A DNA stretch of 64,000 nucleotides from Escherichia phage vB_EcoM_F1: sequence record NC_054912.1. One strand, 5' to 3'. Shown piece by piece: positions 31,258 through 38,746 of the stretch. Each line of letters begins with the position of its first letter. Within the stretch, counting starts at the first letter, position 1. Made by a program: the position numbers and the translations under genes. The notes below the pieces were generated by a model that did not search any database, had not been told where the DNA came from, and saw only the letters and a list, made by a program, of their open reading frames with translations.

Positions 31258-32845
<1,588 letters not shown>

Positions 32846-32872
32846 AATAAAATGGGCCTTGCGGCCCACTCC

Positions 32873-33375
32873 TTAAAAGTATTTTTTAAAACTCATCATA
32901 ACTTTATCATCAACATCATTATCAATCTGTGCAACAAGGTAAGATGACAGTTCTACTTCTTGTGGCGCGGATTGAACATTATCAGAATTAAGATATTCAC
33001 GAATCCAAGGATATGGATGTTTAACCGGAGCATCGGTAATTGGACATGGAAGACCACACTGTTTCATACGAGATACAGTTAAGTAATCAATAAAGCTCCA
33101 CATGCTATTTGTATTTAATCCAGGAACATCGCCATCTTTAAATAAATGAACTGCCCAATCTTTTTCTTGGCGGTTAACTTCCATGAAAATATCAACTGCT
33201 TCTTGTTCACACTCTTGAGCAATTTTAACCCATTCATCGCCATCAGTGCCAAGTTGAAGTTGACGAATAATATATTGGGTGCCTTTAAGATGAAGCTGCT
33301 CATCACGCGCAATGAACTTCATAATCTTGGCATTACCTTCCATGATTTCCATGTTCTTATGGAAGTTAAAGGTAC
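32873..33375 (-). CDS. nrdB: Ribonucleotide reductase small subunit NrdB, exon 2
   Basis: Translation ...TFNFHKNMEIMEGNAKIMKFIARDEQLHL continues the NrdB sequence; 5' boundary inferred from frame and splice-site rules. Confidence 0.8.
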
Positions 33376-34466
33376 CGTTATGTTCGATTGAGCTCGCTAA
33401 TTCTCAACCCGTTCTCTTATGAACTGCTGCATGTTACCATGCAGACCAGACTATATCACAATCCCGGAGGGATTCTCCCCATTTCGAGTCGCTTGACCCT
33501 ACGTCCGAAGACTAGTCGTTGAACCTTGCTTTGCAATTGTCGCCGTGCCATCGTTTATATGTTGATGGTGATAAATCTTTCTTATCACAATATGGACAAT
33601 TCAATTGAATTCTATTTGGATTTAATTTACATCTGTCATTATGTTTTAGATAAAATCCAGGACCTTTACCAATGTGACCACAGAAATCACATGTAATTTC
33701 TTTTTGTGCAGGATGGGTCCCGTTCTTAACCATTTCTAATGTTTTTGCTGATGTTCTTTTCTTATGGTCTTCTGATAAGAAATGATGTGAACCGTCATTT
33801 ACCCGTTTTGATTGAGTTTCTGACTGCATTTTACCACCGCAAAATACATGAGTACCTTCTTTTATAGCTGCAATATTGCGTTCTTTAACTTTTGCAATAT
33901 GCTCAGCTTGTTGAAAATTATGTATACCTAATGCAACTCTATTTAAATTAGATTTACGCTGTATTTCACCGTCTAAAAGATGAAATGTACCATTTTCTAT
34001 CTTAGATTTAATAGAGGCAATATTTTTAGCTCGTACTTCAGGGATATTAAAAATCTGGATTTCTCTAGATTTTGCGGCTTTAGAAGCTAATTCAGAAATT
34101 TCTTCAGGAGAATATTTCATTCTAAGCTTTATAGCATGACAAGCCTGGTAATCTTTTTGAGCTAAATGTATATCATAATGTTCCTGTATAGAAAGGCACA
34201 TCAAATTATCTAAATCATTATTTTCACGGTTACCGTCTTTATGATGGATTTCGTATGTTCTTCCATCAGAATCTTTAGGTATAGGTCCGTTAGCATCTAT
34301 CCAAATTTTTCTATAGTTCAATTGTGCATCCTCTTAAAAGTATAATCATATTTATATTATACTAATTAAAGGTGCAAGCAAAACCTTGGCTGCTAGTTTT
34401 CCTATAAAGGACTTTCCAGCAATTAAAGGAGTTTTCGATAAACGTTACCGTTTAAAGGCGCATTTT
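33376..34466 (-). mobile_element. Group I intron in nrdB carrying a homing endonuclease ORF (about 1091 nt; boundaries inferred)
   Basis: nrdB reading frame broken between YVSFA and TFNFHKN; exon 1 ends in U and intron ends in G; internal HNH endonuclease ORF. Confidence 0.75.
33512..34321 (-). CDS. HNH homing endonuclease, I-TevIII-like, full length
   Basis: 269-aa ORF inside the nrdB intron; HNH-type motif (EIHHKDGNRENNDLDNL) and C-terminal Cys clusters (CDFCGH, CPYCDK). Confidence 0.85.
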   Translation of the reverse strand: MNYRKIWIDANGPIPKDSDGRTYEIHHKDGNRENNDLDNLMCLSIQEHYDIHLAQKDYQACHAIKLRMKYSPEEISELASKAAKSREIQIFNIPEVRAKNIASIKSKIENGTFHLLDGEIQRKSNLNRVALGIHNFQQAEHIAKVKERNIAAIKEGTHVFCGGKMQSETQSKRVNDGSHHFLSEDHKKRTSAKTLEMVKNGTHPAQKEITCDFCGHIGKGPGFYLKHNDRCKLNPNRIQLNCPYCDKKDLSPSTYKRWHGDNCKARFND

Positions 34467-35142
34467 ACGCAAAAGATACATAAAAACGAATAGCTTCCAA
34501 TGCGTTGATTACATGCAAACAGAGGTAAAGAGATTTCATTAGCTCACGCTTCCAATATGTCTCATGCTCAATAGCATCTTCAATAACGTCTTCGTCTGCA
34601 TTAATTTCTTTTTGGTATTCGATATCAGCTTTAGCATTTTCCCATTCACGGGTTTTAATCAGAACGTCATCATAATAGCGTCCAATGGATTCAGCACGTT
34701 TCATAATAGCTTCATCTAATACAATCTCATCAAATACCTTTGACGGATCAGTATAAAGATTTCGCATGATATGAGTATATGAACGACTGTGAATAGTTTC
34801 ACTAAAAGTCCATGTAGCAACCCATGTATCAAGACTTGGGTCTGAAATTAATGACATAAGTACAGCAGAAGGTGCACGACCCTGAATGCTATCCAAAAGT
34901 GATTGATACTTCAGGTTGTTAGTAAAAATATTTTGCTGATACTGAGGAAGCTTATTAAATTGCGCAGCATCCATCATTAAGTTTACTTCTTCAGGACGCC
35001 AGAAAAATGATAAAGATTTCTCAGTAAGTTCTTCAAATACTCGATGCCGTTGAATATCATAACGCGCAATACCAAGACCTGAACCAAAAAACATAGGTTC
35101 TTTTAAAACATCAACTGGGTTTGTATTAAAAACTGTGCTCAT
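34467..35142 (-). CDS. nrdB: Ribonucleotide reductase small subunit NrdB, exon 1
   Basis: 225 codons ending ...EAIRFYVSFA; matches the class Ia R2 iron-centre region. Confidence 0.85.
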
Positions 35143-35193
35143 AAATTTTCCACTTAGTTAATAGATAGTGACTCGTCCGTGAGTCAAATTATA

Positions 35194-37458
35194 TCATAAT
35201 TTACAGGATGAACAATCTTCAGCTTTTGGAGTTTCTATTTCATAATCATCAGTACCAGAACCATCACGGGTATTATGATAATAGAAATTTTTTCCGCCAA
35301 AATACCAAAAATACAAAAGGTCATCAATCATTATTGACATTGGAACCTTTCCTTTTGGAAAAATCTGCGGGTCATAATATGTATTCGCTGAAGCTGATTG
35401 ACATACCCATTTCAGCATAATAGCTACCTGTGTAAGATAAGGTTTATTACCTTTCTTAGCTAATTTCCACGTATAATCATATAGGTCTATGTTATGCTCA
35501 ATATTGGGCACGACTTGATTAAAGGAGCCCTCTTTTGATTCTTTAACAGAGACTGGTCCACGTGGAGGCTCGATACCGTTTGTACTGTTAGAAACTTGGG
35601 AAGATGACTCACATGGCATAAGTGCTGATAATGTGCTATTACGGATGCCAAAGAGCTTAAGGTCTTCCCGCAGCGACGACCAGTCACAAACGTATTTTGG
35701 AGCTGCGATTTGGTCAATCTTTTTATTGTACCAGTCGATAGGTAATTCGCCTCGAGACCAACGAGTGTCTGAATAATATTCGCAAGGTCCTTTTTCTTTG
35801 GCGAGCTTGATGGATGCTTTAATGAGTCCATACTGTAATCTCTCAAATAGTTCATGTGTTAAATCGTTAGCATCTTCATAAGAAGCAAAGTTACTTGCCA
35901 GCCAAGCTGCATAGTTAGTAACACCTACACCGAGGTTACGACGCTTTTTAGCTTTTTCTGCTTCAGGAACTGGATATCCTTGGTAATCCAAAAGATTATC
36001 AAGAGCACGAACTTGGACTTCTGCCAATTCATTAATTTTATCTTGGTCTTGCCAGTCAAAATTATCCAGTACGAATGCGCTAAGGGTACAAAGCCCAATT
36101 TCAGCATCAGGGCTATTCACATCATTTGTTGGAATAGCAATTTCACAGCACAAGTTACTCTGACGAATAGGTGCCTTTTCACGAATAAACGGAGTATAGT
36201 TATTCGTATTATCAATGAACTGCACATAAATCCTTGCTGTTCCTGAGCGTTCAGTCATGAGCAATTCAAATAGTTCACGGGCTTTAATACGCTTTTTACG
36301 AATATTAGGGTCTTTTTCTGCTGCTTCGTATAATTCACGGAAACGGTCTTGGTCTTTAAAATAAGAATAATAAAGCTCGCCACCCATTTCATGCGGACTG
36401 AACAAAGTAATGTAATCGTTCTTTCCGAATCGTTCCATCATCAAATCATTCAGCTGAACACCATAATCCATATGACGAATGCGGTTTTCTTCTACGCCTT
36501 TGTTATTTTTCAAAACGAGAAGATTTTCAACTTCCAAATGCCAAATAGGATAATAAGCAGTAGCAGCGCCGCCACGAATTCCACCCTGTGAACATGATTT
36601 AACTGCAGTCTGAAAATGTTTCCAAAAAGGAATAACACCAGTATGGCGTACTTCACCCATGCCAATCTTAGAACCTTCAGCACGAATCATACCAACGTTA
36701 ATACCAATTCCAGCGCGTTTAGAGATATATTCAACAATTGAAGCGGAAGCCTTATTGATAGACTTCAATGAATCACCTGCCTCAATAACAACACATGAAC
36801 TAAACTGTCGAGTCGGAGTACGACAACCAGCCATAATAGGAGTTGGCAATGAAATCTGTCGAGTAGATACTGCTTCATAAAAACGGATAACGTGTTTTAG
36901 TCTATCAACAGATTCATCTTGATGCAATGCCATTCCAATAGTCATAAATGCAAACTGTGGAGTTTCATAAATTTGACCAGTGGTTTTATCTTTAACTAAA
37001 TATTTTTCTTTTAATTGCATCGCCCCGGAATAAGTAAATTCCATATCCCGTTCGTGCTTAATTTTTGATTCTAAAAATGTAATTTCTTCTGCTGAATATT
37101 TTGACAATAATTCAGGGTCATATTTACCTTCATTTACACAGTAAGAAATATGGTCAATAAATGAACGTGGTTCATACTGCCCGTAAACATGCTTACGAAG
37201 AGCAAACATTAAACAGCGTGCAGCTACATATTGATAATCAGGTTCTTCAACCGAAATAGAATTCGCAGCGGCCTTAATGACAATAGTCTGAATATCATCA
37301 GTTGTCATTCCATCACGGAGATATGATTTAATATTTTCATATAATTCATAAGGATCTACTGATGTTCCTTCAGCTGCCCAAGATAAAACTTTAATAATTT
37401 TTTGCGGGTCAAAGCTCTGAGAAACACCACTACTTTTGATAACATTAATTAATTGCAT
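35194..37458 (-). CDS. nrdA: Ribonucleotide reductase large subunit NrdA
   Basis: 754-aa ORF with N-terminal ATP-cone region and class I RNR catalytic-site region (NLCCEI, CESSSQ). Confidence 0.95.
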   Translation of the reverse strand: MQLINVIKSSGVSQSFDPQKIIKVLSWAAEGTSVDPYELYENIKSYLRDGMTTDDIQTIVIKAAANSISVEEPDYQYVAARCLMFALRKHVYGQYEPRSFIDHISYCVNEGKYDPELLSKYSAEEITFLESKIKHERDMEFTYSGAMQLKEKYLVKDKTTGQIYETPQFAFMTIGMALHQDESVDRLKHVIRFYEAVSTRQISLPTPIMAGCRTPTRQFSSCVVIEAGDSLKSINKASASIVEYISKRAGIGINVGMIRAEGSKIGMGEVRHTGVIPFWKHFQTAVKSCSQGGIRGGAATAYYPIWHLEVENLLVLKNNKGVEENRIRHMDYGVQLNDLMMERFGKNDYITLFSPHEMGGELYYSYFKDQDRFRELYEAAEKDPNIRKKRIKARELFELLMTERSGTARIYVQFIDNTNNYTPFIREKAPIRQSNLCCEIAIPTNDVNSPDAEIGLCTLSAFVLDNFDWQDQDKINELAEVQVRALDNLLDYQGYPVPEAEKAKKRRNLGVGVTNYAAWLASNFASYEDANDLTHELFERLQYGLIKASIKLAKEKGPCEYYSDTRWSRGELPIDWYNKKIDQIAAPKYVCDWSSLREDLKLFGIRNSTLSALMPCESSSQVSNSTNGIEPPRGPVSVKESKEGSFNQVVPNIEHNIDLYDYTWKLAKKGNKPYLTQVAIMLKWVCQSASANTYYDPQIFPKGKVPMSIMIDDLLYFWYFGGKNFYYHNTRDGSGTDDYEIETPKAEDCSSCKL

Positions 37459-37992: not shown

Positions 37993-38300
37993 ATTGCCAT
38001 TTTCCCTTTAATTGCTGGATGCGATTCATAATTTTCAAGGATAAAATCTTTCGGTTTCATGTATTCAGTTAACCAGTAAAGCTGCGTTTCGGTGTCACAA
38101 TTTCCAAACTCTATAGGCCAATCAATTTTAAGTTCACACAGTTCTTTAGGCTCACGACGTAAAATTTCTTTACATTGCTCAGTATGATTCATATAGATGT
38201 GAGTATTACCACCGGAAAATATCAAATCTCCTGGGATAAGATTACACATCTTAGCCACAATATGCGTCAAGGCAGCGTACGAGGCAATGTTGAATGGTAG
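37989..38300 (-). CDS. td: Thymidylate synthase, exon 2
   Basis: Begins [11 protein letters not shown]...; the intron's last three bases AUG give the apparent M of the track ORF. Confidence 0.88.
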
Positions 38301-38746
38301 CATTATGTTCAGATAAGGTCGTTAATCTTACCCCGGAATTATATCCAGCTGCATGTCACCATGCAGATCAGACTATATCTCCAACTTGTTAAAGCAAGTT
38401 GTCTATCGTTTCGAGTCACTTGACCCTACTCCCCAAAGGGATAGTCGTTAGGCATTTATGTAGAACCAATTCCATTTATCAGATTTTACACGATAAGTAA
38501 CTAATCCAGACGAAATTTTAAAATGCCTCTTCCATCTCTTTTCAAAATCTTTAGCACTTCCTACATATACTTTATTGTTTAAAGTATTTTTAATCTGATA
38601 AATTCCGCTTTTCATAAATACCTCTTTAAATATAGAAGTATTTATGAAAGGGCAGTCCTACAATTTAGCACGGGATTGTCTACTAGAGAGGTTCCCCGTT
38701 TAGATAGATTACAAGTATAAGTCACCTTATACTCAGGCCTCAATTA
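38301..38746 (-). mobile_element. td group I intron, 446 nt, with internally deleted homing endonuclease ORF
   Basis: 5' end reads UAAUUGAGGCCUGAGUAUAAGGUGACUUAUACUUGUAAUCUAUCUAAACGGGGAACC..., recalled as the T4 td intron; exon 1 ends UUGGGU. Confidence 0.85.
38448..38615 (-). pseudogene. I-TevI remnant: 55-codon in-frame fusion of the GIY-YIG N-terminus and C-terminal tail
   Basis: Hand translation MKSGIYQIKNTLNNKVYVGSAKDFEKRWKRHFKISSGLVTYRVKSDKWNWFYINA; start matches the I-TevI N-terminus. Confidence 0.7.

Follow-up and report, generated by a model that had tools for sequence, protein, structure and literature searches.

A full-length nrdB group I intron with an intact I-TevIII reading frame in Escherichia phage vB_EcoM_F1, a probable RB3-type homing allele

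In the 64,000-nucleotide stretch of Escherichia phage vB_EcoM_F1 analysed here (NC_054912.1; hereafter the window), nrdB is split between two reading frames, which raises the question of what separates them and whether it is still a functional element. One minus-strand frame, MSTVFNT...EAIRFYVSFA, runs into a stop codon at 34467..34465 and the frame picks up again with TFNFHKNMEIMEGNAKI; the second nrdB ORF on this strand contains MEIMEGNAKI... and extends to 32873. A first-pass annotation had proposed that nrdB is interrupted after ...RFYVSFA by an intron of about 1091 nt at 33376..34466. These ORFs, together with an alignment of a 2270-nt segment to nrdB of T4 (NC_000866) and RB3 (KM606994), bear the interruption out, and the coordinates proved exact, length and junctions being equal to those of the RB3 intron. 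The RB3 segment is colinear with the window, whereas T4 lacks 491 nt inside the interruption as well as two single bases. We consider it highly probable that the locus carries the T4-family nrdB group I intron in its full-length, RB3-type allelic form, which would self-splice, encode I-TevIII and home. The element is already known, as an ordinary and abundant member of the T4-family nrdB introns. Its anatomy at this locus, the restored reading frame, the near-identity to a characterised enzyme and the structural covariation are direct observations of the present analysis.

Three segments, all on the minus strand, were delimited from the ORF list, the T4 and RB3 alignment and the spliced translation. 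Exon 1 (34467..35142, 676 nt) ends on U34467, the 5' splice-site U. The intron (33376..34466, 1091 nt) starts AAAAUGCGCC and terminates ...CAUAACG with a final G, and exon 2 (32873..33375) comprises 503 nt, stop codon counted. Removal of the intron creates the junction codon T|GT, a cysteine, and yields a continuous NrdB frame of 392 aa; this protein aligns with E. coli R2 (E = 1e-125) unbroken across the junction, where ALEAIRFYVSFAC-S/T-F is conserved. The predicted ligated exon junction is ...UUUUGCGU|GUACCUUU, also written ...UAUCUUUUGCGU|GUACCUUUAAC. Within exon 1, a block of about 100 nt (34543..34642, minus strand; NrdB residues ~172-200) is hypervariable, with 55% identity to RB3, a 12-nt deletion in T4 and a gap in E. 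coli R2. At the other end of the gene a GC-rich hairpin, GUGGGCCGCAAGGCCCAU (32838..32880, minus strand), covers both the last part of nrdB and the beginning of denA, and a terminator is annotated at the equivalent place in G8. A match to the Rfam L20_leader at 32838..32964 (22 bits, E = 0.38) falls on this hairpin and was set aside as chance. The GIY-YIG ORF that follows nrdB (32435..32869) is not another homing endonuclease but denA (endonuclease II), in its normal T4 position.

The interruption can be folded as a group I ribozyme in two halves, mapped from helix assignments, pair counts and the Rfam alignment of DCP80. The 5' half (34373..34470, minus strand) holds P1 (34470-34467/34461-34458), P2, the P3 5' strand, P4-P5 and the 5' strands of P6 and P6a; the 3' half (33376..33535, minus strand) holds P6a'/P6', J6/7, P7 (33517-33513 with 33453-33449), P7.1, P7.2, P3', P8, P9, P9.1, P9.2 and the terminal G33376. 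In P1 the exon sequence GCGU (34470..34467) pairs with intron GCGC (34461..34458), including a U34467•G34461 wobble, and is invariant in nine sequences. G33376 immediately precedes exon 2 (GUACC...), and the corresponding nucleotide is a terminal G in all ten introns compared, the 3' end being 1 nt shorter in those of T4, S16, SG1 and HY03. Counted over the same nine sequences on whose alignment, with the ORF loop removed, the P1-P9.2 structure had been drawn, 99.5% of the cells in 74 modelled pairs are paired, and all core helices are paired at 100%. Compensatory changes occur in eight pairs (three in P2, one each in P5, P7.2 and P9, two in P9.2); six slid controls gave none, and 0 of 500 shuffles reached the observed values. 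P3, P4, P6, P7 and P8 are invariant in this sample, and covariation is therefore uninformative on these core helices. At one position of P6a, T4, HY03 and DCP80 have a mismatched C·A in place of a pair.

The U•G pair in P1, the terminal G, a conserved P3-P8 core with its P3/P7 pseudoknot and the J6/7, J8/7 and P7 consensus, covariation and a restored exon frame are thus all present, and judged by its sequence the intron is a group I intron of the T4-phage type, with P7.1/P7.2. With its core divided by the 810-nt ORF, the intron stays under the Rfam gathering score of 50: the Intron_gpI model (RF00028) aligns to its 3' half and scores 38.1 bits (E = 2.3e-7). At the gathering threshold the whole 64-kb window returned no Rfam match, and both its nrdB and td introns, each interrupted by an ORF, lie below the cut-off. 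Natural homologues with no such ORF exceed it (DCP80, 309 nt, 74.1 bits; SG1, 420 nt, 57.9 bits), and the cores of both are near-identical to that of the window, the DCP80 core differing at only about 20 of some 260 positions. The nrdB introns of RB3 and T4 have both been experimentally characterised (PMC1865063), and guanosine-dependent self-splicing is known for that of T4 (cited in PMC1865063 and PMC2790892). Near-identity to these relatives suggests that the intron of this phage also splices. The 1091-nt intron would be transcribed within the nrdB pre-mRNA, its P1-P9.2 core would fold around the looped-out ORF, and it would excise itself by the guanosine-initiated, two-step transesterification of group I introns, joining U34467 to G33375 and so producing the cysteine codon and a functional NrdB.

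The ORF occupies 33512..34321 (minus strand), is looped out of P6a and encodes 269 aa from a TTG start; the end of the coding sequence runs into P6a', P6', J6/7 and the 5' strand of P7. If residues are counted from the TTG codon, numbering agrees with that of Robbins et al. 2007 (PMC1865063). The earlier description of an intact 269-aa ORF with an HNH core is upheld by a Pfam HNH_3 match (E = 6e-13, residues 4-48) and by all four catalytic residues, H26, H27, N39 and H48, in a core spanning residues 26-48 (34178..34246, minus strand; HHKDGNRENNDLDNL corresponds to residues 26-40). These four positions are invariant or nearly so among 119 homologues. The zinc-finger-like Cys-pair elements noticed at the C-terminus resolve, by motif search, into two fingers which both fit CX2C-X12/13-H-X3-C exactly: residues 211-231 (33629..33691, minus strand; CDFCGHIGKGPGFYLKHNDRC) and residues 242-263 (33533..33598, minus strand; CPYCDKKDLSPSTYKRWHGDNC). 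In the RB3 enzyme, H26A, H27A, N39A and H48A each abolished cleavage, while C211A/C214A and C242A/C245A abolished binding, C211A/C214A also losing cleavage (PMC1865063). All eight of these essential residues (H26, H27, N39, H48, C211, C214, C242 and C245) are kept in the window's ORF, whose product falls in the same 90% cluster as TEV3_BPR03. We infer from sequence that this I-TevIII would be an active endonuclease.

Some further features of the protein may be recorded here. The linker between the HNH core and the fingers (residues ~105-205) contains about five loose 'x-G-x-H-x-F' modules (ENGTFH, LGIHNF, EGTHVF, DGSHHF and NGTHPA). Most of the I-TevIII homologues retrieved have a single zinc finger as against two in I-TevIII, which suggests an internal duplication. 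A Pfam FlgM match to residues 74-114 (26.2 bits, cut-off 25) has no supporting context and was judged spurious.

Signals upstream of the ORF offer a plausible account of when it is expressed. A match to the T4 late-promoter consensus, TATAAATA (34349..34356, minus strand), was found by sequence search, 28 nt ahead of the TTG codon; a Shine-Dalgarno element, AAGAGGA, follows at 34335..34329 (minus strand). Both are enclosed in a hairpin (34325..34376, minus strand), in whose 3' arm the Shine-Dalgarno is paired and whose loop holds the candidate promoter; the fold of 34376..34325 has a free energy of -14.7 kcal/mol (z = -4.6), and none of 200 shuffles was equally stable. In transcripts initiated upstream the hairpin could form and would hide the ribosome-binding site. 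Those from the TATAAATA promoter would start inside the hairpin, which then could not form, so that I-TevIII expression is probably limited to late infection. Middle and late promoters within introns drive the intron ORFs of T4, according to a review (PMC2988022). The td and nrdD introns of T4, encoding I-TevI and I-TevII respectively, are likewise IA2-type phage group I introns with a looped-out homing endonuclease ORF, and share both the late promoter and a hairpin sequestering the ribosome-binding site (PMC2988022). Their endonucleases differ in kind: I-TevI and I-TevII are of the GIY-YIG type and work as monomers; I-TevIII is of the HNH type and dimeric, as established for the RB3 protein (PMC1865063).

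The closest characterised counterpart is the RB3 nrdB intron (Eddy & Gold 1991, X59078; PMC1865063), which has the same insertion site, is also 1091 nt long and is identical to the window at 1083 of 1091 positions. The first-pass annotation had pointed to a full-length version in RB3, and RB3 indeed has an intron of 1091 nt whose ORF, in the same position, encodes an I-TevIII of 269 aa, with the same TTG start and an identical upstream sequence; the first 145 nt of the intron, at its 5' end, are the same in both. The window's protein matches all three RB3 records (X59078, AY262130 and KM606994) at 268 of 269 residues, with the HNH residues and both fingers identical, and the ORFs differ by Y23/D23 and three synonymous nucleotide changes. 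In the ribozyme there are four further changes, among them a compensatory G-C/A-U pair in P9; the window agrees with T4 at each of these positions. The T4 intron, given in that annotation as about 0.6 kb with a truncated and inactive I-TevIII, turned out on alignment to be 598 nt long, with the same insertion site and ribozyme and a 97-aa remnant annotated as defective I-TevIII. Its deletion of 491 nt corresponds to 34253..33763 of the window and removes residues ~23 to 186, including the entire HNH motif; elsewhere only a few substitutions and two indels of 1 nt separate T4 from the window.

How common the full-length form is was gauged in a phage collection. At megablast level nrdB exon 1 found 599 records; the 5' intron segment found 125, and the 491 nt missing in T4 found 83, which have the full-length ORF. 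By these counts (83 of 125) the full-length form is in the majority among intron-bearing records. The intact ORF was read in three genera, namely Tequatrovirus, Gelderlandvirus (S16) and Dhakavirus (Bp7, where it has 268 aa; otherwise 269), and only deleted forms were seen in Mosigvirus (AV116) and Gaprivervirus (DCP80). T4 and G8 share a 491-nt deletion at the repeat GAAGA[A/C]CATA, resolved on different sides of a mismatch; AV116 has lost 504 nt at the repeat AAGAACAT, SG1 664 nt at a short repeat and DCP80 782 nt at ACAATTG, leaving an ORF-less intron. The deletions in T4/G8, AV116, SG1 and DCP80 therefore represent at least four independent losses of the I-TevIII ORF in this sample, each between direct repeats of 7-10 bp, at equivalent window positions 34319..33528. 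DCP80 has one ACAATTG as against two flanking the full-length ORF, and the ORF thus behaves like a cassette that can be cleanly taken out or put in. With T4 carrying a 491-nt deletion between repeats and intact ORFs in three genera, the description of this form as 'ancestral' fits the data.

The single amino-acid difference from RB3 merits separate attention. To our knowledge, RB3 I-TevIII is the only I-TevIII ever purified. Codon 23 (34253..34255, minus strand) is TAC (Tyr) in the window and GAC (Asp) in RB3. Among 119 homologues of 31-86% identity, this column holds Y in 108, F in 7, H in 2, L and M in 1 each, and D in 0; Y23 is also present in S16, HY03 and Bp7. An exact-sequence look-up in a large protein collection placed the window's Y23 protein on 164 public contigs, the D23 protein of RB3 on 6 and the 97-aa T4 remnant on 95. 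Since the column is nearly invariantly aromatic and without D in homologues, Asp23 of RB3 is a derived, non-conservative change; by this comparison Y23 is the family consensus and the characterised RB3 enzyme the odd allele. That enzyme was described as weakly active, poor in DNA binding and 'extremely labile', with a specific activity 3-4 orders of magnitude below that of I-TevI, a Kd near 0.8 µM and activity gone within days; its homing, undetected at first, was put at 4.3% (PMC1865063). The text of Robbins et al. 2007 (PMC1865063) contains no mention of D23 or Y23, and the titles and abstracts of the I-TevIII literature since 2011 include none on allelic variants. We suggest, tentatively and with rather less than even confidence, that the feebleness ascribed to I-TevIII may belong to a hypomorphic RB3 allele and not to the family, and that the window's allele might be a markedly better endonuclease.

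The flanking exon carries what appears to be a trace of the intron's arrival. The introns of the window and RB3 are 99.3% identical, but their first exons only 87.1%, and a tract free of differences extends from -31 to +67 around the insertion site. From this pattern we infer a signature of homing, with short co-conversion into a divergent nrdB. The ORF in the P6a loop would supply I-TevIII, an HNH enzyme carrying two zinc fingers; repair by recombination, with an intron-bearing genome as template, would then transfer the intron and short stretches of flanking exon to the recipient. That this allele itself cleaves and homes is likely, given its near-identity to characterised relatives. Even an intact ORF may nevertheless drive little mobility, in view of the weak in vitro activity of the RB3 enzyme and its homing of only 4.3%. 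In T4 and RB3, the free-standing HNH endonuclease gene mobE sits between nrdA and nrdB. The window, unlike RB3, has no mobE upstream of nrdB: only 51 nt (35143..35193) separate the end of nrdA at 35194 from the start of nrdB at 35142, and neither mobE nor nrdB.1 is present there. This gap contains a GACTC-ACGGAC-GAGTC hairpin.

Other explanations of the locus deserve consideration alongside a homing-competent RB3-type allele. A deposited annotation might be taken to favour the view that faulty assembly or sequencing produced the interruption, or that nrdB is a pseudogene, since MZ170041.1 enters nrdB under two separate CDSs and lists the intron ORF as a hypothetical protein. The identical arrangement in 83 phage records, from independent isolates, argues against both chance and misassembly as its source; joining the exons at these junctions yields NrdB at full length, a group I core is present, and with this evidence we regard the artefact and pseudogene readings as excluded, their residual probability being negligible. 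It is a different matter whether the intron moves by its own enzyme. The T4 nrdB intron is not mobile by itself and relies on MobE, whose nicking of nrdB supports a documented trans-homing of that defective intron (PMC2790892), and an annotated endonuclease gene lies between nrdA and nrdB in RB3, S16 and HY03, as does a long ORF abutting nrdB in SG1 and G8. The present intron might accordingly be supposed to spread mostly in trans through a neighbouring free-standing MobE and not through its own I-TevIII. With no mobE here and only 51 nt from nrdA to nrdB, and with AV116 and Bp7 likewise lacking mobE at this place, we think such dependence very improbable for this phage.

A slightly less remote prospect, though still an improbable one, is that the ORF is intact but its product dead or silent, owing to Y23, the TTG start or the hidden ribosome-binding site, which would make the intron a passive passenger like that of T4. 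The protein does differ from the sole assayed enzyme three residues ahead of the catalytic H26, its start codon is TTG, and the RB3 enzyme is itself already feeble. Tyrosine at this position is nevertheless the consensus, found on 164 contigs against 6 and matched by Y or F in 115 of 119 homologues, never by D; RB3 shares the TTG start and the identical upstream sequence, and the remaining three nucleotide differences between the ORFs are all synonymous. The balance of these considerations leaves the full-length, I-TevIII-encoding homing allele as our preferred reading.

The td intron of the same genome (about 38298..38743, minus strand) presents the opposite condition. Compared with T4 it has a 570-nt in-frame deletion in I-TevI between two CATTTTAAA direct repeats, which reduces the protein from 245 to 55 aa, residues 1-32 being fused to the last 23; the remnant ORF lies at 38448..38615. 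The first-pass annotation had called this endonuclease decayed and had seen two opposite stages of the homing cycle side by side in one genome, and both remarks agree with an intact I-TevIII at nrdB and a deleted I-TevI at td. Among the best 25 of 221 records, only Escherichia phage vB_EcoM_FN spans the td deletion junction in one piece, and the deletion may be private to the isolate or an assembly collapse. The same phage (MZ170041.1), a Tequatrovirus from poultry sewage, is identical to the window over a 6.25-kb stretch around the nrdB intron. At 137284..139553 of its record the split nrdB and the 'hypothetical protein' of the intron can be corrected, and denA and rnlA, also labelled hypothetical, can be named; beyond such tidying of the annotation, the nrdB intron found here is of little consequence.

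For the study or engineering of I-TevIII, the consensus Y23 allele is probably preferable to the D23 allele of RB3 used so far. In its two introns the window is the mirror of T4, keeping the nrdB endonuclease and having lost that of td where T4 has done the opposite, and this contrast illustrates the gain-and-decay cycle of homing endonucleases, the observed deletions each being bounded by a short direct repeat.
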